DNA from: Candidatus Iainarchaeum sp.
GTDB lineage: Archaea; Iainarchaeota; Iainarchaeia; Iainarchaeales; CSSED10-239
Reading direction: 5' to 3'
Length of the DNA: 10,352 bases
Assembly: GCA_028693335.1 (NCBI GenBank)
Contig: JAQUVR010000019.1
Location: 1-10,352 of the forward strand
The position numbers and the translations under genes are program-made. Below the pieces are notes generated by a model. The model searched no databases, had not been told where the DNA came from, and was given only the letters and a program-made list of their open reading frames with translations. This document shows, piece by piece, positions 1 to 10,352 of this stretch (the first letter of the stretch is position 1; each line of letters starts with the position of its first letter).

Positions 1-3000
1 TGTTGGTGTATCAAACATTTGAAAAGGACCAACATGCTCTAATGCTTTATTTAATTTATCAACATTATCTTTTGCCTTGTCATTATCATTATCAGGTTGA
101 GCCTTAAAATCAATAGCAACCTCTTTATTATCACAACCATTTGTTGCATCAAGGTCTTTGTTTAATGTTGCTTTTAGGTCAGAAATATCTGCACCATTAG
201 TTACAGAAGTATATTCAACCCACATGATATAGCTTTTATTTTCAGAATTATAAATTAATTGACCTCTTTCAAACTGAACAGCAACATTATAACCAACAAA
301 ATCAGTATTTCCAGAATACACTAATTTTGTAGATCTGTTTCCTGCTAAAATAATTGCCTTTGCATTTGCTCCATCAGCAATCTTTCTTGGTGTACCTTCT
401 GCAACTATTCTTCCATTATTTGGAGTAAGATCATAAGCTGTTGATGGATGAGCATTGTTAGCCATCTTTACTGGACCTAAATAATCAATTAAGTTAGTTA
501 TATTTGCTGGAATTTCAATACCTGTTTGATTCTTATACCCAGTTTTTAAACAATTTAAAAATGCTTGATCCTTTACAATAAAATTACCATGACCATCCAT
601 TTCAAATAACTCTGTATTACCATCAGGAACTGGAATATAACTTAGACTGTGTGGAATAACTTTTGCAGGTATTGCAAGATTATCAGCAATTAAACGAACA
701 TAATCTTTATTTTGTGAAGAAATAATTGTTTCTGTTATTCCTTTTTCATCAGTTACTATTAACTCTCCAGTTTCTTTATTAATCTCTAAAGTTATATTAT
801 TAGTCTCATCTCTTAAAACTTCAACACCTTTATCAGAATAAACACTTGCTCTACATTTTGAACCTGCACCAAGCTCTACAAAAAACAAATTACCTTTTAC
901 CTTTGAAAATGTGTTTCCACCAGTAGTTACTTGTGCTTGAGCAATTGGATATTCAACCAATTTTTGATCAGCAAATTTTTTGATTTCATCAGCACCAGCA
1001 GAAACTGTTTTTTCAAGTTCTGTACCTGCAGTTAAATTTACTAAACCTTCTTCTAACTTTTCTGTACTTTCTGTAATACTTTCAGCAATCTTATTTTTAG
1101 AATCTTCTTTTAATCTTTCATCAGTTGTTTTAGATACAAAAATGTGAGTATAATAACCTTCTTGATCATCAACACATTCACTTAATTGAGGAATAATAAA
1201 CATAGCTTGAGGAATATTACTTAATAAAGCTGGAGCTAACCATGTACTTGTATAAGAAGAAATTGCAATATATGCAACATGCTCTGCAAGAACAAGACCA
1301 CCAGCAACTCTATAATCTTTTGGTAAAACTTTACCAATTGGCATTCCTAAAAGATCCAAAGACTCTAATCTATTAGCACAAGTTTCTTCATTATTTCTTG
1401 CATGAAGAAGATTAATAGAATTCTCTGTTTTTGTATTTGCTAAGACACCATCATAATCTGTGTGATGTGAAAAACTTATTAATGTTTGACCTTTTTTTTC
1501 TATATTTGTTTTAGAAGTATTTTCAATAATGTAATTATTTGTTTTTGCAGTTGATGGAGTATTATAAGTAATATCCAAATCCTTAATTACAGAACTAAAA
1601 GCAGAATCTGTTGATAAAAGATTTTCTGTTGATGATTCTGGATTAGTAGTTCCTTCTGTGGTAGGAGTTAATTCTGTTCCTTCTGCAGGAGTATCTGGAT
1701 TTGTTATTTCTGAGGTGTCTGTATTTTCTGTTGGTAATTGACTCTCTAAATTAGACTCTTGTGTTACTCTTTGATTTTCAACCTCATTAGTTATTTCTTG
1801 TTTAATCCCATCAGTCAAAAGATCATGATCACCAAATTTATAAGTACAAGCAGCACCACAACCAGAACTTAGATTATCTGTAATTAAAACAATATCATCA
1901 ACTTCTGATCTTCTTATTTTACCCTCAGTTAAATTTACGATAAATTTATTTATAGACTGTCCCATTTGATTATCCATGTCACTAGTCAATTCTTTTGGAA
2001 TATAAGATGCCCAAAATAATGCAGAATTTAGATACTGCATAAATAGATCTCCTTGATCAGAACCTTCATTTGCAAAAAAATCAACATAAGCATCAGAATA
2101 CAATGGATTAGTTTGGTGCTTTATTTGTAAAGATGTATAAGTTTCAGGAAGTTGTAAAATACTATATTTTGTAAGACCAAGTCTTTCTCCATAAACAGTA
2201 TTAAAACCAGTCTTTAATTCCCAATAAAATAAATTCCAACCAAGCATAGCTGGACCCTGTGTAAAAAATCTTTGAAATGACTCCCCATTAAATTCTTTCA
2301 TTTTTTTGTTAATGCCACTAATACCTCTACCACTAACCCATTCTTTATTAGACAATGTTGTCATCATTTCTTGAGCATTAAAAGAAGCATCACTAAATTT
2401 TTTAGTTAAAAAACCATCATTTAAAGCATAAGCTGTTTCAATTGGATCAACACCAAAAACATCAGTAGGAAGATTAGATTTAATAGAACTAAAGGTTTCA
2501 AAAGTTCCAACACCCAAAGCATCCATTTGATTTTTATTAAATAAATGTGCTGAAATTTCAACAGCATTACCAGTTGATGGATCAATATATCTTATAAATC
2601 CATCTGGATTTAACTTAGCAAAAGCATCAGCAGCTGTAGTTCCTCTAACTGTTGCTAAAGAAGTTGGATCTGCAATAACTGATTGAACTTTTAATCTTTG
2701 AACAACAGCTGTAGAACCATCAGCAAAAGTTACTGGAACATCTTCAACTAATGCAGATTTTGCGGCTTTTGTTGTATATTTATTTCCACTAACCTGTATT
2801 TCAAAAGGATCACCAGCACCTCTTAACCCTTTATTACCAATACTTACAGCATCTCCTGAATTTGTAGAAATTACACTATTTGCATTAATTACTCTTCCTG
2901 TTCCAGGATCAATAATATTTCTATTACTTACAACAGATAAAGCATCAAGACCATCATCCCAAACAAAACCATTAAATGTTTGAGTTTTAAATGCCTTTCC

Positions 3001-4566
3001 TAATTTAACAGCATCAGCAGCAGTAGAAACAACAGCATCATATTCAGCACCAGTTAATGTTGTAGACCACATTCCTGCAGGAACATTACTTGCTTTTAAT
3101 GTTTGGATTTTTTTCATTCCACTAATATATGCTGGATCAGCAGTTCTTGCTTTTAAAATAGTGTCCGCAATTTTAAATTCTTCAAAATATTGTGTTGCAT
3201 TATCAGTAAATGCATATTTTTGAACTTTATTAAAACCATCATTATTTACAATACTTTTATGTAAAAATTCACTAGTTTTTTTCTTATCACTAATACCACC
3301 CAAAAACTCTTTCATCTCTGCATCAATCTTATTACTTTGAAGATCTCTAAGTCTTATATCTGGTGGATTTCTTCCAACAATACCTGCTGAATTTAAATTA
3401 GATATAAAATCATCAACATTATGTGTATACTTTTTTGCAGCAAGAGCCATTCTTGTTTGTTGAACTGGATGCCTCATTAGATTTACTGGATCATCCAACA
3501 AATTATCTAAAAAACCACCTTTTTTTATAACTCCTGCATTTCTTAATTTATTTGGGATATAATTATATATATTTAATGCAGTTTTATTTCTAAAAATTTT
3601 TGCAGCACTATTTAATAATAAAGGACTAGCTGAACTAAATACCATGTCAACAGTAAAATATTGATTAAACATTTTATCAAATAAAGAATAGGTGTTAATA
3701 TAACAATCCTCACCCCTACAAGTAGTTTGCATTTGAGCAGCAAAAGAATCTGTTAAAGCACTATTTTTAATTGCCTTATCCATTAACAAATTAAGTTTTT
3801 CAATCTCTACACCATTCAGATCATTTTCAGGATTATTTGCAACCTTGTTATAAAAATTTATTTCTTCTAAAGACATATCACTAAAAACACCAAGATCTAT
3901 ATCAGTAGAATAATCTTTATTTAAAACAGCTTCGCCAACCTCTTCCTTTAATTTATTTACTTGTAACCAATCAAGAGCATCTTTTTTTACAATACTAGTC
4001 TGTCTCCAGAAACCACTAGCACTATTATTTCTATAAAGACCAAGATCTTTTAAATAACATGCTGGATCTTGAGAAGTATCACATCTACCAAATCTTAAAG
4101 TTGACTCAAGGTTTATACCATAATAATGAGGACCAGTACACACCTTTCCAAGAATTGTTGGAACCTCTAATGGATTTATTGTGTGAGCAGGTATTTCTTT
4201 TTTTAGAGCAAGATCTCCAGCCTTTGCATCAGGTTCAGTAATTAAAACAGAATTTCTTTCAAGTGTTGGATCTGTTTTTTGAGGTGTTTGATTAGAAGTA
4301 ACAACTTCAGCAGTAAAACCTTTCAATAAAATAGATCTCCATAATTTTTCAACAGATTCTTCTGGTAATTCAGTTGTTAGACAACCAGTTCCAGAATCAG
4401 AGATTATTTTTGTATCTGTTACCTTTGTATCTGGATTTGCAAAATAAATAACATTATTATTTGTATTTGTTGTTGGTAAAGTTATTGCTTGTGCAAACAC
4501 ACTATTTATAAATAATGTTAAAAAAAACATTGTTATTATTTTTTGGCTAGTTTTATTAATATTCAT
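1..4566 (-). CDS. Giant secreted/surface protein. The N-terminal 1522 aa are present. The 5' end is complete and the 3' end lies beyond the window start.
   Basis: I translated the minus strand by hand in the frame of ATG 4566-4564. All 1522 codons down to base 1 are free of TAA/TAG/TGA. An upstream in-frame stop sits at 4596-4594. The ORF is absent from the supplied track, presumably because it has no stop inside the window. The N-terminus MNINKTSQKIITMFFLTLFINSVFA|QAITLPTT has a basic n-region, a hydrophobic core and a small-residue cleavage site, as in a Sec-type signal peptide. GTGA lies 6 nt upstream of the ATG as a weak SD. The gene starts 22 nt downstream of the 185-aa membrane-protein gene. 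I recognised no named domain. Confidence 0.85.
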   Translation of the reverse strand, partial: MNINKTSQKIITMFFLTLFINSVFAQAITLPTTNTNNNVIYFANPDTKVTDTKIISDSGTGCLTTELPEESVEKLWRSILLKGFTAEVVTSNQTPQKTDPTLERNSVLITEPDAKAGDLALKKEIPAHTINPLEVPTILGKVCTGPHYYGINLESTLRFGRCDTSQDPACYLKDLGLYRNNSASGFWRQTSIVKKDALDWLQVNKLKEEVGEAVLNKDYSTDIDLGVFSDMSLEEINFYNKVANNPENDLNGVEIEKLNLLMDKAIKNSALTDSFAAQMQTTCRGEDCYINTYSLFDKMFNQYFTVDMVFSSASPLLLNSAAKIFRNKTALNIYNYIPNKLRNAGVIKKGGFLDNLLDDPVNLMRHPVQQTRMALAAKKYTHNVDDFISNLNSAGIVGRNPPDIRLRDLQSNKIDAEMKEFLGGISDKKKTSEFLHKSIVNNDGFNKVQKYAFTDNATQYFEEFKIADTILKARTADPAYISGMKKIQTLKASNVPAGMWSTTLTGAEYDAVVSTAADAVKLGKAFKTQTFNGFVWDDGLDALSVVSNRNIIDPGTGRVINANSVISTNSGDAVSIGNKGLRGAGDPFEIQVSGNKYTTKAAKSALVEDVPVTFADGSTAVVQRLKVQSVIADPTSLATVRGTTAADAFAKLNPDGFIRYIDPSTGNAVEISAHLFNKNQMDALGVGTFETFSSIKSNLPTDVFGVDPIETAYALNDGFLTKKFSDASFNAQEMMTTLSNKEWVSGRGISGINKKMKEFNGESFQRFFTQGPAMLGWNLFYWELKTGFNTVYGERLGLTKYSILQLPETYTSLQIKHQTNPLYSDAYVDFFANEGSDQGDLFMQYLNSALFWASYIPKELTSDMDNQMGQSINKFIVNLTEGKIRRSEVDDIVLITDNLSSGCGAACTYKFGDHDLLTDGIKQEITNEVENQRVTQESNLESQLPTENTDTSEITNPDTPAEGTELTPTTEGTTNPESSTENLLSTDSAFSSVIKDLDITYNTPSTAKTNNYIIENTSKTNIEKKGQTLISFSHHTDYDGVLANTKTENSINLLHARNNEETCANRLESLDLLGMPIGKVLPKDYRVAGGLVLAEHVAYIAISSYTSTWLAPALLSNIPQAMFIIPQLSECVDDQEGYYTHIFVSKTTDERLKEDSKNKIAESITESTEKLEEGLVNLTAGTELEKTVSAGADEIKKFADQKLVEYPIAQAQVTTGGNTFSKVKGNLFFVELGAGSKCRASVYSDKGVEVLRDETNNITLEINKETGELIVTDEKGITETIISSQNKDYVRLIADNLAIPAKVIPHSLSYIPVPDGNTELFEMDGHGNFIVKDQAFLNCLKTGYKNQTGIEIPANITNLIDYLGPVKMANNAHPSTAYDLTPNNGRIVAEGTPRKIADGANAKAIILAGNRSTKLVYSGNTDFVGYNVAVQFERGQLIYNSENKSYIMWVEYTSVTNGADISDLKATLNKDLDATNGCDNKEVAIDFKAQPDNDNDKAKDNVDKLNKALEHVGPFQMFDTPT
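1621..1800 (-). repeat. Low-complexity Thr/Glu/Asn/Pro-rich linker-coding segment inside the giant ORF (about aa 923-982)
   Basis: The translation reads QEITNEVENQRVTQESNLESQLPTENTDTSEITNPDTPAEGTELTPTTEGTTNPESSTEN. At the DNA level the plus strand shows a reiterated ttctg / tctgg motif every 12-15 nt. Confidence 0.6.
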
Positions 4567-4588
4567 TTTTTTCACAGATCCATATTTT

Positions 4589-5146
4589 TTATATTAATAT
4601 TAAATACAATAAAATTGCAATAATTTTTGGAAAAAGCAAATAAACAAAAAACACACATATAAAAGTAATTGTTAAACTTATCCAAAGATCAACAAAATTT
4701 AAAGACTGCTTTATTGCTTTTGATAATTTGCCTTTTTTGTTATAATGTCTTTTATTTAGTTTTTCATAAATAAGAGTTGTAATCATTTCAAATATTACAA
4801 CAATTGCTGTTAGCAATAAATTAACAACTAACAATCTAAAAATACTATATAAAAAAAATAAAATCAGATAATATCCAGAAACTGGCAGACCAGTATTAAT
4901 TATTAGAAAAACAAAATAAATTATTAAAAATATAAAAAGAACGACATAAGTTAAAAAAAACAAAGAAACAATATAACTTTTTTTTTCTCTTATCTTTGAA
5001 AAAGGATTTTTTAACCAATTAACAACAAATACAAAAGGAATAGCAAATATTGCAGAAAAGAAAACAAGTTTAATAAAAAACCACAAATAATTAAATAATT
5101 TTAAAAAGATATTAGATAGTTTTGTGCTTAATATTAATTGATCCAT
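4589..5146 (-). CDS. Small polytopic membrane protein (185 aa, about 4-5 TM segments), function unknown
   Basis: This is a complete ORF from the track. Long Phe/Ile/Leu-rich hydrophobic stretches are separated by Lys-rich loops (KNPFSKIREKKS, EKLNKRHYNKKGKLSKAIKQ). GAGGG (plus-strand ccctc at 5153-5157) lies 6 nt upstream of the ATG. The stop is 22 nt upstream of the giant ORF start, so the two are probably co-transcribed. Confidence 0.7.
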   Translation of the reverse strand: MDQLILSTKLSNIFLKLFNYLWFFIKLVFFSAIFAIPFVFVVNWLKNPFSKIREKKSYIVSLFFLTYVVLFIFLIIYFVFLIINTGLPVSGYYLILFFLYSIFRLLVVNLLLTAIVVIFEMITTLIYEKLNKRHYNKKGKLSKAIKQSLNFVDLWISLTITFICVFFVYLLFPKIIAILLYLILI

Positions 5147-5293
5147 AAAAAACCCTCATAAATATAAAATATATTTAAACAAAAGCTTTATATATATAAT
5201 ATTTATTATATCATATAAACAGAAAAGTTAAACTATTTAAAAATATTTAGATTAATAAGATTTATAGAGAAACTAAAAGAAAAAAGATCTATT
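5147..5293. promoter_or_regulatory. Divergent intergenic promoter region with several archaeal TATA-box-like elements
   Basis: This is the only sizeable non-coding stretch and sits between divergently oriented genes. It contains ctttatatatataa (5186-5199, near-palindromic and usable on either strand), atatttaaa (5171-5179) and tttataga (5261-5268). The last element is about 26 nt upstream of ATG 5294 and no SD is present, which fits a leaderless mRNA. TATA-like strings are frequent in DNA this AT-rich, so the exact elements remain unresolved. Confidence 0.5.
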
Positions 5294-5971
5294 ATGGAAG
5301 ACTTAAAAAATATTAAAAGAAGAGAAAGAAGATTCTATAGAAAAATAGAAAATGATAAGATAGAGTACGATATAAAATCAAAAGAAAATAATAATATTCC
5401 ACAAAATAACTTGCCAGGAGCAACTCCTGAAAAAAAAGAAATTATTGAAAATATATTATCAGAAATAAAAAATAGTATTAATCCTGATATTGATGAAATC
5501 ACAGAAATTATATATGATCAATTAAATATCAATAACCTTCCAATAGATCAAGAAACAGTAAAAGAAGCAATCTATAGAAATAGACATAAAAATCCAGATA
5601 AAAAAACAGACGAATCCGAAAAAACAGAACCAGTCTTTTTATCAGAAAGAAAAGAACTAGAAACAGTTATTGATGATATCTTAGATCAATTATCAAAATC
5701 AGAAACATTAGAAAATAAATATCAACTAGACAAAAATAAAAAAGAAAACTCCGAAGAAAAAAATAGTAAAAGACCAAGAAGAGAAGAAAAAACAGAAGAG
5801 CCAAAAAAACCAGAAGAAAAACCAAAAGACGAAAAAAAACAAAAAACAGAAAAACCAAAACCAAAAAAAGAACCTAAAAAATCTGAAATGGAACTAGATT
5901 TTGGAGATGATGTAGATACTGAAGATCTTAATGATTCAGAATCAGATGATGATTTAGGATTAAAATTCTAA
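5294..5971 (+). CDS. Lys/Glu-rich, probably intrinsically disordered protein (225 aa) with a basic N-terminus and a strongly acidic C-terminal tail
   Basis: This is a complete ORF and the only plus-strand gene. The first ~130 aa have ordinary composition. They are followed by the charged low-complexity tract EEKTEEPKKPEEKPKDEKKQKTEKPKPKKEPKK and the tail EMELDFGDDVDTEDLNDSESDDDLGLKF. The antisense ORF 5667..5864 is Phe/Leu-rich junk, which supports the purine-rich strand as the coding one. Confidence 0.6.
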   Translation: MEDLKNIKRRERRFYRKIENDKIEYDIKSKENNNIPQNNLPGATPEKKEIIENILSEIKNSINPDIDEITEIIYDQLNINNLPIDQETVKEAIYRNRHKNPDKKTDESEKTEPVFLSERKELETVIDDILDQLSKSETLENKYQLDKNKKENSEEKNSKRPRREEKTEEPKKPEEKPKDEKKQKTEKPKPKKEPKKSEMELDFGDDVDTEDLNDSESDDDLGLKF

Positions 5972-6777
5972 TTTAGATTTTCTGAAATTAATTCACATCT
6001 TAATTTTTCAATATCTGAAGAGTCATTAAGTATAAGATTTGATGAAATATCAACTGTTGCTGGCCAAATTGCAAAAGTTGTATTAACAGCAACATCTGTT
6101 AATGTTGTTTCTGGCGTATAATATTGAAAACGCATTGGAATTGATGACGAATATATCTTATTTGCCTTAGATATTATAGATCTCACTATAGTATAATCCT
6201 GTGGGTTACAAAGATAATAGCTATAAGGATTATTTGAATCAATTGAATAAATTTTTCTATATTTTGCAAGATTTGGTGTTTGATCAGTAATGTCCTCATA
6301 ATTTGTAAGTTTTAATAAAAAGAAAATATATTTTTCATCAGCATCATAAATATAAAAAACATAATCATAATTATTTAATGGACGCATAATTGATTTAACC
6401 ATGTGATATAAATTAAACTTAACAATATCATCATAATCAGGATTACCAGCAGCATCAGCAATTCTCATTTGATTAATATCTGAGTTTTTTCCAATTAATT
6501 TGTCTGGATAATAATCATGTTTAACAGCAGTCATCAAATAATCAACTTCTTGACCAGATTGATAATTTAGATCATAATTTAATGGAATAGAGCTATAAAA
6601 AATAGTTCTCATAGCAGCATTTGCATACTCCTTAAAATAAAGATCAGAAATACTTTGATCAACTCTATCTCCATAAGAAGAAGAATATCTAAACATTAAC
6701 ACAGCCAATGTTACAATAATCATTAAAAAAAATAATGCATCTGTAACTGCTGCTTGACCTTTTTTTTTTCTAAACAT
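5968..6777 (-). CDS. Pilin-like protein with an archaeal class III (prepilin-type) signal peptide, 269 aa
   Basis: The N-terminus is MFRKKKG|QAAVTDALFFLMIIVTLAVLMF: a short basic leader, a KGQ cleavage motif and a hydrophobic helix. The Tyr/Asn/Asp-rich extracellular part has 2 Cys and N-x-S/T sequons. It is the last gene of the operon, 20 nt downstream of the previous gene. Confidence 0.75.
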   Translation of the reverse strand: MFRKKKGQAAVTDALFFLMIIVTLAVLMFRYSSSYGDRVDQSISDLYFKEYANAAMRTIFYSSIPLNYDLNYQSGQEVDYLMTAVKHDYYPDKLIGKNSDINQMRIADAAGNPDYDDIVKFNLYHMVKSIMRPLNNYDYVFYIYDADEKYIFFLLKLTNYEDITDQTPNLAKYRKIYSIDSNNPYSYYLCNPQDYTIVRSIISKANKIYSSSIPMRFQYYTPETTLTDVAVNTTFAIWPATVDISSNLILNDSSDIEKLRCELISENLN

Positions 6778-6797: not shown

Positions 6798-7295
6798 TTA
6801 TCTCCAAACAACAACATATAATCTTGCTGGTTTGATATATAGATCTTTTTGAGTAGTTGTTGGATAATGATAAATAATAATTTCACTGTTTGCTCTTGTA
6901 ATAAAATCTGTAATATTAGAAGTATTACATGCATATAATTCATTAGAATCATCAATTTCTTCCTTTAAAATTTCAGATTCAAGATTTTCTTTATCCAACA
7001 CAACATAATTACTAGAATTAAGATCTAGATCAACCAAAAAAGCATTCCAATTATGTTTTGTTTGAACCTTACTACAGGTTTTTTTAAAAGAATCTAAATT
7101 AAGAATAACTGGTTCCTCTTTCATAATTGCAGAAATATTTATAACTTCTGTTTTTAGGGAATAAAGATCTGTGTTATTTTTATAAACATTATAAGTATTT
7201 AAAAAAACACTAAAAAAAATCATTAAACCCAAAAATATAGGAATTAAACTTGGTAGATCATCACCAATTGCACCAATAAAACCATATCTTGTCAT
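6798..7295 (-). CDS. Pilus-operon protein with an N-terminal hydrophobic anchor (165 aa) and a non-canonical leader
   Basis: The N-terminus is MTRYGFIGAIGDDLPSLIPIFLGLMIFFSVFL, with a possible RYG|F processing site that is not the KGQ type. The extracellular part has 2 Cys and about five N-x-S/T sequons. It ends in the beta-strand-like LYVVVWR. It starts 13 nt downstream of the preceding gene. Confidence 0.65.
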   Translation of the reverse strand: MTRYGFIGAIGDDLPSLIPIFLGLMIFFSVFLNTYNVYKNNTDLYSLKTEVINISAIMKEEPVILNLDSFKKTCSKVQTKHNWNAFLVDLDLNSSNYVVLDKENLESEILKEEIDDSNELYACNTSNITDFITRANSEIIIYHYPTTTQKDLYIKPARLYVVVWR

Positions 7296-7308
7296 AAATA
7301 ATCATATT

Positions 7309-7986
7309 TTAACTTGTTGGAGCCTCTGAAGATATATTTATTGTTAGATTAGTTACTGTATTTAAACAATCAATACCTTCATCATTAAGCAACATATCCC
7401 GCACCTCATTTCCTTGATTACAGGTGTAGATTCCATTTTTATATGCACATGGAAAAAAATAAATATTTGGTTTTCCATCTTTAATTTTTTTTACAAAAAA
7501 TATTTTATTATCAATAGAGTTTGATTTAAGAGGATCATAATGAACAAATGTTTCATCAGTAACTTTACAAATACTTTGATTACTTTGACAATCAGAACTG
7601 TAAAAATTAACTGGGCCATTAAAATCAATATCATAAGCAGCATAAATTGTGTTGTTGTTTTTTCTTCTATCCATAATTGCTAAAACAATTCTATTTGTGT
7701 CACTTGTAATCTCATAATAAGAAAGATCAATTTTATATTTTATACTAAACATATCAGAACCACCAGAATTGGTGTAAATCTTATCAGGCAAATTTAATTG
7801 CTTTACTGTACAATAACTATTACTCTCAATACCAGTTTTAATCTCAGTACCAAGTTTATAAACCAGTTCAAAACTTTGTCTAGTTTTCATATTTGAATTA
7901 ACAGTTGCCATAAAAAAAATAACTATAGATGCAATAGCAGTAACAAAAATTAAAAGATTCATTTTTGATAAACTAAATTCAATCAT
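7309..7986 (-). CDS. Pilus-operon protein with an N-terminal hydrophobic anchor (225 aa), Cys-containing extracellular domain
   Basis: The N-terminus is MIEFSLSKMNLLIFVTAIASIVIFFMATV, a single hydrophobic helix with no clear G/A at -1. There are 6 Cys plus N-x-S/T sequons. The start lies 4 nt after the upstream stop (cataaaggtATG), which suggests translational coupling. AAGGT sits adjacent to the ATG. Confidence 0.65.
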   Translation of the reverse strand: MIEFSLSKMNLLIFVTAIASIVIFFMATVNSNMKTRQSFELVYKLGTEIKTGIESNSYCTVKQLNLPDKIYTNSGGSDMFSIKYKIDLSYYEITSDTNRIVLAIMDRRKNNNTIYAAYDIDFNGPVNFYSSDCQSNQSICKVTDETFVHYDPLKSNSIDNKIFFVKKIKDGKPNIYFFPCAYKNGIYTCNQGNEVRDMLLNDEGIDCLNTVTNLTINISSEAPTS

Positions 7987-7990
7987 ACCT

Positions 7991-8605
7991 TTATGCTCTT
8001 TTCTTTCTAATTAAACAAACCTTTTGTGTACCATGTCCTGTTTGTGCACCAGATTTAAAGGCTCTATAATTACCTGGTCTTATAGTTGTAATAGTTGTGC
8101 CTATATTTCCAGAAACAATTGGGTTGATAACTTCCCATTCTAATTCTTCCTCTGTATCAACACATTCAGATTGAGAACCAAAATCAATACTTGTTGGAAG
8201 ATCCATACATATTGGATCTATTGGTTGAAGCCTTATAGATTTTTGTGTATCTTCATACACATATTCCAACAACAAACAAGTATTACCACCCCCACAATAA
8301 GCAGTACATCTAGATGGATCATTATATGTGTTTAATTGAACTGATTCATAAATTTCATTAAAACAAGCCTTTGTTTGAAAATTAATATTTCTTATTACTA
8401 GATCAGAACCCAGAACAACCTCTCTTAATGCCTCTTTAAAATTACTAAGATCAGATCTTTTATTACCAATACAAACATTTTGAGAAAGATTCTTAAGAGC
8501 AAAAGAACCAGCAACAATAACAAAACCCATTAATACAACTGCAACAAGTACTTCAAAAGGAGCACTTACTTGTCCTTTTTTTTTATTAAAAATATTTTTA
8601 GTCAT
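7991..8605 (-). CDS. Pilin-like protein with an archaeal class III signal peptide, 204 aa, 8 Cys
   Basis: The N-terminus is MTKNIFNKKKG|QVSAPFEVLVAVVLMGFVIVAGSFAL, matching the KGQ-x-S-x-x-x-E-x-L pattern of archaeal prepilin/prearchaellin leaders. The C-terminus QKVCLIRKKRA is paralogous to that of the 8891..9427 gene. Confidence 0.8.
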   Translation of the reverse strand: MTKNIFNKKKGQVSAPFEVLVAVVLMGFVIVAGSFALKNLSQNVCIGNKRSDLSNFKEALREVVLGSDLVIRNINFQTKACFNEIYESVQLNTYNDPSRCTAYCGGGNTCLLLEYVYEDTQKSIRLQPIDPICMDLPTSIDFGSQSECVDTEEELEWEVINPIVSGNIGTTITTIRPGNYRAFKSGAQTGHGTQKVCLIRKKRA

Positions 8606-8663: not shown

Positions 8664-8861
8664 CTAAGAAGTTTGTGCAGCAACCTGAGTTGCAGGTAAA
8701 TTTGCAAGACTTGTTTGAGTTTTTACAGATCTGCTAAACATTGGTTTAATTACTGCAATTAAGACAATTGCAACAATTGCAACAATAACAAGCATATAGA
8801 GAGTAGAAGCAGAATCTGTTTGTGCCTTTTGATCTTTTAATATTTTTTGTATAATATTCAT
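8664..8861 (-). CDS. Mini-pilin: 65-aa class III signal-peptide protein and candidate major filament subunit
   Basis: The sequence is MNIIQKILKDQKA|QTDSASTLYMLVIVAIVAIVLIAVIKPMF followed by a 24-aa Ser/Thr/Gln/Ala tail. It has a basic leader, A at -1 and Q at +1, then a very hydrophobic helix. It has no Cys. It carries the best SD in the window: AGGAG (plus-strand ctcct at 8872-8876), 10 nt upstream of the ATG. Confidence 0.7.
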   Translation of the reverse strand: MNIIQKILKDQKAQTDSASTLYMLVIVAIVAIVLIAVIKPMFSRSVKTQTSLANLPATQVAAQTS

Positions 8862-8890: not shown

Positions 8891-9427
8891 TTATGCTCTT
8901 TTTGGAAAGACTATACAAACTTTTTCACTTGAAAAATCTGTAAAACGACTTTCACAAAGTGATGCCCCATCTGGAACTTCACCAGTAAATTGACCTAAAG
9001 ATGCTTGCATTTCATCCTTATAATCACATAAAACACCAATTTGATATGAAAGTGTTGAACTACTATTGTAAGTTATACTTGCACCACTCTCACCAGAAAA
9101 ATTACTTCCAGGACTAACAATACAAACTTGTTGTCTACTTAAACCTGTTCCTTCAGCAAGAGCAGGAGCAGAAATCGAATCTCCGTTCTTAAATTTAACA
9201 GACTCTGTATATCTTAAAGATCCAACAGAATTTATTTGAGATCTAATTAATGTTTGAGCACTCTCTTCTGGGTTTCCACCAATATTTACATTCTTCATAA
9301 TTATTGGAAGTAAAACACCTAGTAAAGCCAAAGCAACAACAGCAGCAATCAATAACTGAAATGTAGAAAACGCTTGTCCTTTTTTATTTAATTTTAATTT
9401 TTTCATAAAATTTTCAAAATCTATCAT
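8891..9427 (-). CDS. Pilin-like protein with an archaeal class III signal peptide (178 aa using the revised start; the ORF track extends to 9481)
   Basis: From ATG 9427 the leader is MIDFENFMKKLKLNKKG|QAFSTFQLLIAAVVALALLGVLLPI. GGGTGA (plus-strand tcaccc at 9432-9437) lies 4 nt upstream of this ATG. The 18-codon upstream extension (MLIYFVKYYLFKNKKGDI) overlaps the predicted promoter/5'UTR. The protein has 4 Cys and the C-terminus EKVCIVFPKRA. Confidence 0.8.
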   Translation of the reverse strand: MIDFENFMKKLKLNKKGQAFSTFQLLIAAVVALALLGVLLPIIMKNVNIGGNPEESAQTLIRSQINSVGSLRYTESVKFKNGDSISAPALAEGTGLSRQQVCIVSPGSNFSGESGASITYNSSSTLSYQIGVLCDYKDEMQASLGQFTGEVPDGASLCESRFTDFSSEKVCIVFPKRA

Positions 9428-9522: not shown

Positions 9523-10035
9523 TTAGATAATTCCATAAATTAAATTAAAAACATAAACAATTAATGTAGGAATTAATAACATAATTAAATAATCCCACAA
9601 CAATAATTTATGATCAGCCTTATAATATTCCCAAAGATATTCTGTTTTAGTCTTTTTCTTAACCTTTAAAAAATACCACATAGTTCCAAAAATCAAACAA
9701 GTCATTACCCAAATAATAGTAATTGCAAGAGATGATTCTAAAGACAATAACCATTTAGAAAAAAACAACCAACCTAATAATAAAAAAACAATTGTTATTA
9801 TTGAAGAAAAGATCATCTTAAAACCAAGCTTTGCAGTTTCAGTTTTAAAAATTCTTATTATTTTACTAAAGATCCAACTAATAATAAACAAAAGAGTCAT
9901 TAAAATAATTATTGCAAAAATTGTAACTAGTATAACTGTACCAATAAGATACCCAATACCCAAAATTAAAATAGCCAAAAAAATATAAAAAATTTTTGAT
10001 AATATATTTTTATTTTTCATAAAATCACCATACAT
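9523..10035 (-). CDS. Small polytopic membrane protein (170 aa, about 4-5 TM segments), function unknown
   Basis: This is a complete ORF. Hydrophobic stretches are separated by Lys-rich loops (SKIIRIFKTETAKLG, KVKKKTKTEYLWEYYKADHK). Its ATG (10035-10033) directly abuts the TAA (10038-10036) of the upstream gene. It has no GxGD-type aspartyl-peptidase motif. Confidence 0.7.
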   Translation of the reverse strand: MYGDFMKNKNILSKIFYIFLAILILGIGYLIGTVILVTIFAIIILMTLLFIISWIFSKIIRIFKTETAKLGFKMIFSSIITIVFLLLGWLFFSKWLLSLESSLAITIIWVMTCLIFGTMWYFLKVKKKTKTEYLWEYYKADHKLLLWDYLIMLLIPTLIVYVFNLIYGII

Positions 10036-10352
10036 TTAATTATTATAAATATCATTAACAGGTTTTTTATTAAAGAAAAAAACACAAAAAGTTGGACAAA
10101 TGTCAAAAGGATTATTATCATTTCTGGTTAGATCTGTATTAACTTCTGGATAAGAGGAATTAACCACATTTAGTCCATTATGCGCTGTTTGATTACAATA
10201 AACATAAACATCCATTTTTCTATAACTTCCTTTAATTGTAATAAATTCTCCATTATCGCTTTTTACGATCCCCGGTCCAGCAACAAAAGAAACGCAATCT
10301 TTGTTTAGACCACTTAGATTTTGAACAGTTCTTCTATCTAATTGTCCCCTAA
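10036..10352 (-). CDS. 3' end (about 105 codons) of a Cys-containing, probably secreted protein whose start lies beyond the right edge
   Basis: I translated this by hand in the frame that ends at TAA 10038-10036. It is open to the window edge. The sequence is ...RGQLDRRTVQNLSGLNKDCVSFVAGPGIVKSDNGEFITIKGSYRKMDVYVYCNQTAHNGLNVVNSSYPEVNTDLTRNDNNPFDICPTFCVFFFNKKPVNDIYNN*. The visible part has 4 Cys plus N-x-S/T sequons. It is not in the ORF track because it has no start inside the window. Confidence 0.65.
   Translation of the reverse strand, partial: RGQLDRRTVQNLSGLNKDCVSFVAGPGIVKSDNGEFITIKGSYRKMDVYVYCNQTAHNGLNVVNSSYPEVNTDLTRNDNNPFDICPTFCVFFFNKKPVNDIYNN

Follow-up and report, generated by a model that had tools for sequence, protein, structure and literature searches.

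The giant gene

The analyzed stretch of DNA, herein referred to as the window, comprises 10,352 nucleotides of a contig of Candidatus Iainarchaeum sp. (contig JAQUVR010000019.1, assembly GCA_028693335.1). Its left part is occupied by a very large gene on the minus strand, herein named the giant gene, and most of the remaining part by small genes, several of which encode pilin-like proteins. An earlier note, made from the letters of the window alone, had described the long reading frame and had pointed to a DPANN archaeon as the host, and this host assignment (Iainarchaeota) was correct. To our knowledge, no Iainarchaeote has been cultured. The literature on the lifestyle of this lineage is divided (PMC5905446).

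The giant gene runs through the window as 1,522 stop-free codons at positions 1-4566 (minus strand), beginning with the protein N-terminus MNINKTSQKIITMFFLTLFINSVFAQA. With the base composition of the minus strand, the probability of this frame being open by chance is ~2.6e-61, and the longest open run in the remaining five frames of the same interval is only 93 codons. The uninterrupted frame claimed in the earlier note was therefore confirmed. The gene is also truly missing from the mechanical list of open reading frames (ORFs), as had been observed, because that list omits ORFs running off the window end.

The full-length gene was recovered through a relative, P0001, encoded in the contig L001, which aligns with the entire window at 96.4% DNA identity. 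P0001 consists of 1,703 aa and is 98% identical to the window protein, so that codons 1-1,522 of ~1,703 are present here and the 3' end lies beyond the window. The two giant genes have ~97% DNA identity and are colinear, with zero indels across 1,522 codons. They differ by 112 synonymous and 32 nonsynonymous codons, and the ratio of nonsynonymous to synonymous rates (dN/dS) is 0.076. This colinearity and the low dN/dS speak against an assembly artefact and indicate that neither a frameshift nor a chance ORF is involved. The 181 residues that P0001 adds continue the beta-rich part; they then run through a Gly/Ser-rich stretch and the motif FNIPLAPE into a hydrophobic helix of 24 residues and end in a tail rich in Lys.

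In summary, the giant ORF is a real gene under strong purifying selection. The sole point for reading it as an assembly or annotation artefact, or as a decaying pseudogene, is its absence from the mechanical ORF list, which the listing rule accounts for. The tiny chance of the open frame (~3e-61), the dN/dS value, the colinearity with independent assemblies from many samples, and an architecture kept in 192 cluster representatives (see Distribution of the Family) make such an artefact practically inconceivable.

Architecture of the Encoded Protein

Conservation of the giant protein was mapped on an alignment of 19 homologues. Residues 1-25 (positions 4492-4566, minus strand) form a Sec-type signal peptide, MNINKTSQKIITMFFLTLFINSVFA followed by QA, with a Kyte-Doolittle value of 1.96 for the h-region. 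Its n-h-c layout and the cleavage region 'NS(I/V)FA' are kept in the family, in agreement with the Sec-type signal proposed in the earlier note, and cleavage is predicted after VFA. The (K/R)G-Q motif of class III signals was not found in this peptide.

The mature protein begins with a conserved Cys-containing region (residues ~51-200; positions 3967-4416, minus strand), which was modeled by AlphaFold2 (AF2) with low confidence. Here, C62, C143, C162, and C170 are conserved in at least 90% of the sequences, and the same level is reached by C283, C288, C903, and C907 further along the family alignment. The most invariant segment of the protein, MQTTCRGE(D/N)CYINTYSLFDKMFNQYF, covers residues 268-307 (positions 3646-3765, minus strand) and contains 16 invariant columns in the 19 homologues, with conservation up to 0.86. 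Its (Y/F)SxFDK motif is kept in the Iainarchaeota-type members. A less conserved middle part follows (residues ~322-743, or ~350-744 in the conservation map; positions 2338-3603, minus strand; conservation 0.31-0.55), in which a helical bundle and then an alpha/beta part were predicted with a per-residue confidence (pLDDT) of 62-94. The next region, residues 745-925 (positions 1792-2334, minus strand), is again conserved; it carries YVDFFANxGSDQGDLF and a CxxxC pair, has near-invariant columns at 778-907, and was modeled with low AF2 confidence.

Residues 926-1000 (positions 1567-1791, minus strand) form a hypervariable Thr/Glu/Pro-rich linker with a conservation of 0.16-0.31 and gaps up to 50%. 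Between the window and the L001 strain, the linker shows 8 nonsynonymous vs. 2 synonymous changes. Per 100 aa, this makes 10.7 changes, whereas the remaining ectodomain regions have 1.1-1.8. The C-terminal region (residues ~1001-1650) is represented in the window by residues 1001-1522 (positions 1-1566, minus strand). It contains the motifs SFSHHTDYDG, CVDDxEGxYxH, and IPAKVIPxSLSYIPVP, a helical hairpin, and beta-rich domains, and its strongest conservation lies directly before the membrane. A profile of this region, A2, connects the 192 cluster representatives, and it is the part that defines the superfamily. A Gly/Ser stretch precedes the juxtamembrane motif FNIPLxPE.

In the full-length relatives, the Kyte-Doolittle threshold is passed by only two segments, the signal peptide and the C-terminal helix. 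The latter has values of 2.1-2.9 and is followed by a basic tail in all complete members. The hydrophobic stretch at residues ~1086-1126 falls below the threshold and was rejected as a transmembrane (TM) segment. The mature ectodomain thus has ~1,647 aa, a mass of 181 kDa, and a pI of 4.9. Every sequence feature quoted in the earlier note is present: the Cys segments, the Thr/Glu/Pro linker, the hydrophobic stretch, and a charged helical stretch. Internal repeats were found neither by self-BLAST nor by self-alignment of the profile, and no Pfam repeat families were matched. The giant protein is therefore not a repeat-built fibrillar adhesin, and a tandem array of domains of the cadherin, Ig, or RTX type was rejected.

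Homology and Fold Searches

No match was found in Pfam, NCBIfam, PHROGs, or PDB sequences, whether the single protein, the family profile, or a 30-member superfamily profile was used, and Rfam and tRNA scans of the window were likewise without a match. For structure prediction, the protein was split at the linker and alignments of 18-19 sequences served as AF2 input. The model of the N-terminal slice is confident solely at residues ~322-743, predicted as a helical bundle and then an alpha/beta part, and that of the C-terminal slice only at residues ~1310-1620, predicted as beta-rich with a pLDDT of 80-94. The cut at the linker may have broken a discontinuous conserved domain, lowering the AF2 confidence in the most conserved segments.

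PDB was searched by Foldseek with both models and BFVD with the C-terminal model; the only matches were generic ones with TM-scores of ~0.1-0.2, such as sliding clamps, propellers, FlgL/flagellin, and Hbl/Nhe-type bundles. The top BFVD match (E = 9e-5) was rejected on its TM-score of 0.07 and root-mean-square deviation of 33 Å. The middle region showed a weak helical-bundle likeness to FlgL (E of at least 0.014) and to Hbl, NheA, MakA, and SmhA (E = 3.8-9), all with TM-scores of at most 0.21. A ClyA-family alpha pore-forming toxin or a flagellin-like bundle was rejected because Foldseek found no significant structural similarity. The AF2 models are too incomplete to support the claim of a new fold. 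The earlier note's statement that the protein has no recognizable domain thus held in the four sequence collections and in the fold comparison. A confident match to an S-layer protein or a known adhesin fold, named there as the outcome that would end the novelty claim, did not appear in the profile and structure searches.

The faint likeness to ClyA-family toxins in the helical-bundle and beta-head part bears on another reading, namely that the giant protein is a surface-displayed enzyme or a membrane-active effector (for example a hydrolase or a pore-forming or fusogenic protein acting on a host envelope), delivered or positioned by the pilus system. DPANN cells must get lipids and metabolites from their hosts. 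The strongly conserved polar motifs SFSHHTDYDG, CVDDxEGxYxH, and DFFANxGSDQGD resemble metal ligands, and several conserved, moderately hydrophobic segments lie away from the anchor. However, the toxin likenesses are not significant (E = 3.8-9, probabilities 0.01-0.03), and no enzyme family was recognized by sequence or profile. Furthermore, the residues conserved across the superfamily are mostly Gly, Pro, Cys, and aromatic, a structural pattern, and distant members no longer carry the HHT and GSDxGD motifs. We therefore consider an effector quite improbable.

Distribution of the Family

A word-seeded search of 5.8 billion proteins yielded 19 relatives of the giant protein, all unannotated. 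The family is not a tiny one of 18-19 members, since an exhaustive HMMER search with the C-terminal profile A2 in 1.84 billion cluster representatives found at least 192 at E ≤1e-3, including 96 at E ≤1e-30. These representatives stand for clusters at 50% identity. Nearly all of them have 1,200-1,700 aa, with the matched region at the C-terminus.

Relatives are encoded in at least 91 GTDB species genomes, almost all labeled Candidatus Iainarchaeum, Diapherotrites, or 'archaeon'. Ca. Forterrea multitransposorum, whose genome is complete, is among these carriers. One locus, L070 (JAFCCG010000034.1), is labeled 'Chloroflexi bacterium' and yet holds an Iainarchaeota-type pair of the giant gene and its upstream neighbor g11; its contig is probably mis-binned. 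The most distant representatives bear the NCBI label Candidatus Micrarchaeota. The distant members keep the signal peptide, the beta-rich C-terminal region, and the ending (L/I)-P-x-x-P-(E/D/Q), helix, and basic tail, while the motifs of the N-terminal region are lost. Judged from these sequences, the superfamily combines a membrane-proximal module that is conserved with a distal part that differs between lineages.

Linkage to a Pilus-Type Gene Cluster

The giant gene is adjacent to five to seven genes encoding class III (prepilin-type) signal peptides. Linkage to this cluster was counted in the 49 loci in which the giant gene has a complete 5' end preceded by 4 kb of DNA or more, and the pilin-like genes g06, g08, and g09 were used as markers. 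Two or more of the three markers were found in 43 loci. In 33 of the 49, the last pilin gene, g09, shares the strand of the giant gene and lies no more than 3 kb upstream of it, at a protein identity of only 23-35%. In a wider set of 83 loci, crude ORFs were screened for class III signals. Of the 945 ORFs on the strand of the giant gene in the 8.5 kb preceding it, 143 have such a signal, compared with 6 of 1,248 downstream. The adjacency to a pilin cluster described in the earlier note is thus kept across the lineage.

An even closer neighbor is g11, which encodes a protein of ~163-203 aa with 4-5 TM segments. It directly precedes the giant gene, in the same orientation, in 55 of 59 loci, and the remaining four carry it at another place in the locus. 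Two loci contain an inversion, and there g11 remains with the pilin genes.

The cluster is headed by a gene for a 745-aa protein with a weak, full-length T2SSF match. Since PF00482 is present in its orthologues (45-47% identity), which bear the name 'type II secretion system F family protein', the head gene encodes a platform of the TadC/FlaJ type (T2SSF family). In L084, a locus of the sister clade, the gene order is T2SSE ATPase, platform, seven small genes, an opposite-strand gene for a charged protein, a 177-aa membrane protein, and the giant gene. The ATPase, of 761 aa, is encoded directly upstream of the platform, and its best NCBIfam matches are FlaI and TadA. The distant locus L086, with a giant protein of 1,333 aa, has the same order, with the platform, pilins with an RRGQ signal, relatives of g05, g06, g08, and g09, an opposite-strand gene for a Zn-ribbon protein, a g11-like gene, and the giant gene.

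Several peculiarities of individual loci were observed. No assembly ATPase stands beside the platform in the window's clade (L001 1417-3654 and upstream; compare L084 7670-12376), and ferredoxin and AP-endonuclease genes lie upstream of the platform in L001 on the opposite strand. The pilin cluster of L086 is interrupted in its middle by a toxin-antitoxin-like gene set (PIN, DUF7718, and HVO_A0114; positions 2938-4242, plus strand). L001 encodes, downstream of the giant gene (positions 16075-17859, minus strand), another surface-type protein; it has DUF5018 and GLUG motifs and a length of at least 594 aa, being cut by the contig end. L045 has, in the pilin-gene position upstream of the g11-giant pair, a gene for a very acidic protein of 1,952 aa (20% Asp+Glu; positions 270-6128, minus strand). 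Near the pilus locus of L084 (positions 1-3533, minus strand), a second giant protein is encoded, which exceeds 2,631 aa and shows a faint match to CarboxypepD_reg.

The neighborhood of several minor-pilin-like genes had suggested in the earlier note an analogy with PilY1, that is, a large secreted adhesin at the pilus tip. Large DUF2341/PilY-like proteins also occur in Methanococcus-type archaeal type IV pilus (T4P) loci (PMC4858521). This analogy did not stand. No PilY1/Neisseria_PilC, DUF2341, or vWA domain was found by Pfam in the window protein or in 30 diverse members, and the signal peptide is Sec-type, not class III. Moreover, the conserved C-terminal TM helix with its basic tail should keep the giant protein in the membrane of its own cell, whereas a tip adhesin would be unanchored. 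The beta-rich C-terminal model has propeller-like Foldseek matches, but these are insignificant (TM-score ~0.1, E of at least 1e-3). A tip adhesin of the PilY1 type is accordingly very improbable.

A weightier alternative is that the giant protein is the main envelope protein, either a lattice-forming S-layer protein or a membrane-anchored stalk like SlaB or tetrabrachion, and stands next to pilus genes only because pili cross the envelope. The protein begins with a signal peptide and carries a C-terminal TM anchor behind a Gly/Ser spacer. Within the lineage, its gene is present in at least 91 species genomes, apparently as a single copy. The mass of 181 kDa and pI of 4.9 are inside the classic ranges, and the protein fits the description of S-layer proteins as secreted, acidic, anchored, and of 40-200 kDa (10.1101/2021.04.28.441871). 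Makarova et al. (2016) called analogous T4P-linked proteins 'S-layer-like' (PMC4858521), and according to Gfrerer et al. the micrarchaeal S-layer protein, for which no anchor was detected, may need a second, TM-bearing stalk protein.

On the other hand, PF05123/PF05124, TIGR01564/TIGR01567, DUF1608, and similar models from Pfam (searched with 30 diverse members) and NCBIfam gave no match. The giant protein has 14-17 Cys, many of them conserved, while S-layer proteins are typically near-devoid of sulfur residues (10.1101/2021.04.28.441871). Heavy glycosylation is not indicated either, as N-X-S/T sequons are not enriched (16 observed vs. 20.7 expected). In the cultured micrarchaeon, a highly abundant S-layer protein has been verified that belongs to another, recognizable family spread throughout Micrarchaeota (10.1101/2021.04.28.441871), and the giant family is also found in Micrarchaeota-labeled genomes, so that both presumably occur in the same genomes. 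Finally, S-layer genes are not usually coupled so tightly to a low-complexity polytopic gene and to a pilus cluster, a coupling kept here at identities of 15-30%. The giant protein is probably not a lattice-forming S-layer protein, and we regard its role as the main envelope protein in either form as rather unlikely, although it might be the TM-bearing stalk postulated by Gfrerer et al.

Genes Upstream of the Giant Gene in the Window

The gene g11 (positions 4589-5146, minus strand) encodes a polytopic membrane protein of 185 aa, and only 22 nt separate its stop from the giant ATG. It is nearly devoid of invariant residues, has no family match, and looks like a structural partner rather than an enzyme. 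Diverged archaeosortases or rhomboids were considered for both g11 and g03 and rejected, since no family match or invariant catalytic residues were found and the HHalign probability was 0.2%. Upstream of g11 lies an AT-rich divergent intergenic region (positions 5147-5293; ~19% GC) that contains TATA-like runs and, 8 nt ahead of the g11 ATG, a GAGG. From its composition, it is the probable promoter region for both the g11-giant pair and g10, and the pair would thus probably have a promoter of its own.

The gene g10 (positions 5294-5971, plus strand) encodes a Lys/Glu-rich protein of 225 aa with the N-terminal motif RRxRRF(Y)R. It is located between the last pilin gene and g11 in the opposite orientation, and this position and orientation are kept across divergent genomes. 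In some of its orthologues, a CPxC zinc ribbon forms the C-terminus. The protein encoded in L086 has 713 aa and an N-terminal hydrophobic segment.

The pilin-like genes occupy the minus strand beyond g10, and the class III signals at the N-termini of their products have Gln at +1. The product of g09 (positions 5968-6777) is a class III pilin-like protein of 269 aa, MFRKKKGQ followed by AAVTDALFFLMIIV, and was found by tblastn in 46 of the 83 loci. The 165-aa product of g08 (positions 6798-7295) carries the motif GFIGAIGDDLPSLIPIF, also kept in the distant locus L086, and the 225-aa product of g07 (positions 7309-7986) has an N-terminal hydrophobic helix. Class III pilin-like proteins are also encoded by g06 (positions 7991-8605; 204 aa; NKKKGQ followed by VSAPFEVLVAVV) and g04 (positions 8891-9427; 178 aa; LNKKGQ followed by AFSTFQLLIAAVVALA); NKKGQ followed by AFSTFQLLIAAVV is an example of such an N-terminus in the window. 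Between g06 and g04, g05 (positions 8664-8861) encodes a class III protein of only 65 aa, QKAQ followed by TDSAST and a hydrophobic helix, with a weak Flp/Fap match. Many loci retain it, and its size makes it a candidate for the major pilin.

Farther upstream, g03 (positions 9523-10020, minus strand) encodes a polytopic membrane protein of 165 aa restricted to the window's clade. The mechanically assigned starts of g04 (TTG 9481) and g03 (ATG 10035) are probably too far upstream; ATG 9427 and ATG 10020 fit the orthologues and the class III signal. The last gene, g02 (positions 10036-10352, minus strand), is cut at the window end, and only its 3' part is present (183 aa in L001): a 59-aa ORF matches the C-terminus of the product of L001 3668-4219.

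C-Terminal Tail as a Possible Sorting Signal

In Iainarchaeota, the tail of the giant protein carries the motif FN(I/L)P(L/S)xPE. The corresponding motif of distant members is LP(S)xP(E/D/Q), and in both cases the TM helix and K/R residues follow. The substrates of exosortases, archaeosortases, and rhombosortases have signals (PEP-CTERM, PGF-CTERM, GlyGly-CTERM) with a tripartite C-terminal layout (10.1101/2023.06.07.544157, PMC6219818), and the same succession of motif, TM helix, and basic cluster is present here. NCBIfam sorting-domain models gave no match with four members at E up to 1. The (L/I)PxxPE tail was not found on any other protein in 1.23 Mb of neighborhood DNA; the giant family alone carries the motif in the studied loci, and a signal shared with other proteins was dropped from consideration.

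A small archaeosortase-family gene (~185-200 aa; TIGR04178, 47.5 bits) was found in or near the cluster in four of 85 loci: L084 (positions 4835-5404, minus strand), L024 (2157-2768, plus strand), L037 (2133-2690, plus strand), and L061 (14167-14727, minus strand). In L024 and L037, it lies directly upstream of the g04 pilin gene. There may be a link between this gene and the (L/I)PxxPE-TM-basic ending of the giant protein.

Proposed Role of the Giant Protein

Taken together, the sequence and its genomic context point, with a little more than even probability in our judgment, to a dedicated membrane-anchored surface component of a T4P-type apparatus specific to Iainarchaeota and related DPANN archaea. 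The giant protein is a candidate for a surface or adhesion function in the attachment to surfaces or hosts.

In the proposed mechanism, the giant protein would be exported by Sec and its signal peptide cut after VFA, and the ectodomain would be tethered to the outer face of the cytoplasmic membrane through the C-terminal helix. Alternatively, the protein might be processed at (L/I)PxxPE and then retained by a different anchor. Because the membrane-proximal module is conserved across the superfamily, this beta-rich, membrane-adjacent part probably docks onto g11, the pilins, or the platform. The lineage-variable N-terminal 800-1,000 residues, held out on the fast-evolving Thr/Glu/Pro stalk, would probably contact the environment and bind something there. 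The pilus would reach out, and the anchored giant protein would provide a fixed surface for binding and holding. Possibly, it also serves as an envelope scaffold through which the pilus works.

Several observations weigh against the proposed surface component. Six of the 49 loci do not have at least two of g06, g08, and g09: none of the three markers was found in L045, L048, L049, L061, and L070, and in L043 the platform gene alone lies upstream. In the window's clade, the opposite-strand gene g10 separates the giant gene from the pilin genes, and the giant gene, adjacent to them, is probably not in one operon with them. AF2 confidence is lowest in the most conserved segments (residues 51-350, 745-925, and 1001-1150; positions 3517-4416, 1792-2334, and 1117-1566 of the window), and the partly confident models lend no positive support to adhesion. 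The single-TM anchored topology itself is deduced from hydropathy and conservation.

A more far-reaching version of the membrane-anchored component can be imagined, which we rate as improbable. The g11-giant pair and the pilus cluster would form an undescribed surface organelle in at least two DPANN phyla, the 180-kDa ectodomain would have a new fold and recognize and hold, or open, the envelope of a partner cell, and (L/I)PxxPE-TM-basic would be a new class of archaeal sorting signal, processed by the small archaeosortase or by g11.

The gene-level basis of the attachment of DPANN archaea to other cells and of their exploitation is largely unexplored, and cryo-tomography of DPANN contact sites has revealed filaments, surface remodeling, and unidentified complexes (PMC8975820, PMC11329633). 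The present analysis defines a candidate lineage-wide module consisting of the T4P locus, g11, and an anchored protein of 180 kDa in which no known domain was recognized. Present in at least 91 species genomes, the module reaches Micrarchaeota-labeled genomes, a phylum with a cultured representative, and if this holds true, the hypothesis becomes testable. In addition, a large 'dark' protein family now has a name and boundaries, and a possible new C-terminal sorting motif is flagged. Should the giant protein be merely an envelope scaffold, the result would still help genome annotation and would be less surprising.

Comparison with Known Systems

Large proteins linked to pili or exposed on the surface are known from several archaeal and bacterial systems. 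SlaB of Sulfolobales, tetrabrachion, and the Haloferax S-layer glycoprotein share with the giant protein a type I topology with a C-terminal anchor, an acidic composition, large size, and a Ser/Thr/Gly-rich spacer near the membrane. Unlike these anchored S-layer components, the giant protein has no S-layer signatures, is Cys-rich and not enriched in sequons, and is linked to pilus genes.

The SPEARE proteins of Nanohaloarchaeota are much larger and have recognizable protease, adhesion, and nuclease domains. Like the giant protein, they are very large and secreted and belong to genome-reduced, probably host-dependent archaea, and a role in host contact was proposed for them. In contrast, the giant family has no recognizable domain and is defined by its pilus-locus context.

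PilY1 and the DUF2341 proteins of Methanococcus-type Epd loci resemble the giant protein as large non-pilins encoded beside minor pilins and with a plausible adhesion role. The giant protein differs in having no PilY1, DUF2341, or vWA domain and in its Sec signal and C-terminal anchor, which make residence at the tip unlikely. With the substrates of exosortases, archaeosortases, and rhombosortases, it shares the motif, helix, and basic cluster as well as a Gly/Ser-rich stretch just before the motif. No NCBIfam sorting-domain model matches its own motif, however, and most loci have no sortase gene nearby.

The closest counterparts are found among archaeal T4P loci with extra large proteins, as described by Makarova, Koonin, and Albers (2016; PMC4858521). 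One type of these proteins has a C-terminal TM segment and was termed 'S-layer-like', and another is interpreted as an adhesin. A later review mentions DPANN pilus loci with unrecognizable pilins and 'specific surface proteins' (PMC6393860). No description of the giant family was found in the literature consulted, nor was a gene-level description of the giant locus found in the Forterrea genome paper or the papers on micrarchaeon co-cultures. The features that mark the category of Makarova et al. were all found here: a TadC/FlaJ platform and class III pilins encoded in the locus, linkage kept across genomes, a signal peptide, and a C-terminal TM segment. The giant protein is thus a new family inside the loosely defined category of T4P-linked large proteins.

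With the 'S-layer-like' proteins of Pyrobaculum/Thermoproteus T4P loci (PMC4858521), the giant protein shares large size, a TadC-type platform, and many fast-evolving class III pilins, as well as the signal peptide, the C-terminal TM anchor, and conserved cysteines; in both cases, function is assigned by inference. Unlike them, it belongs to DPANN archaea and has no detectable sequence relation to the described families or to the reachable arCOGs. Specific to the giant family are the polytopic partner g11 and the juxtamembrane motif (L/I)PxxPE.

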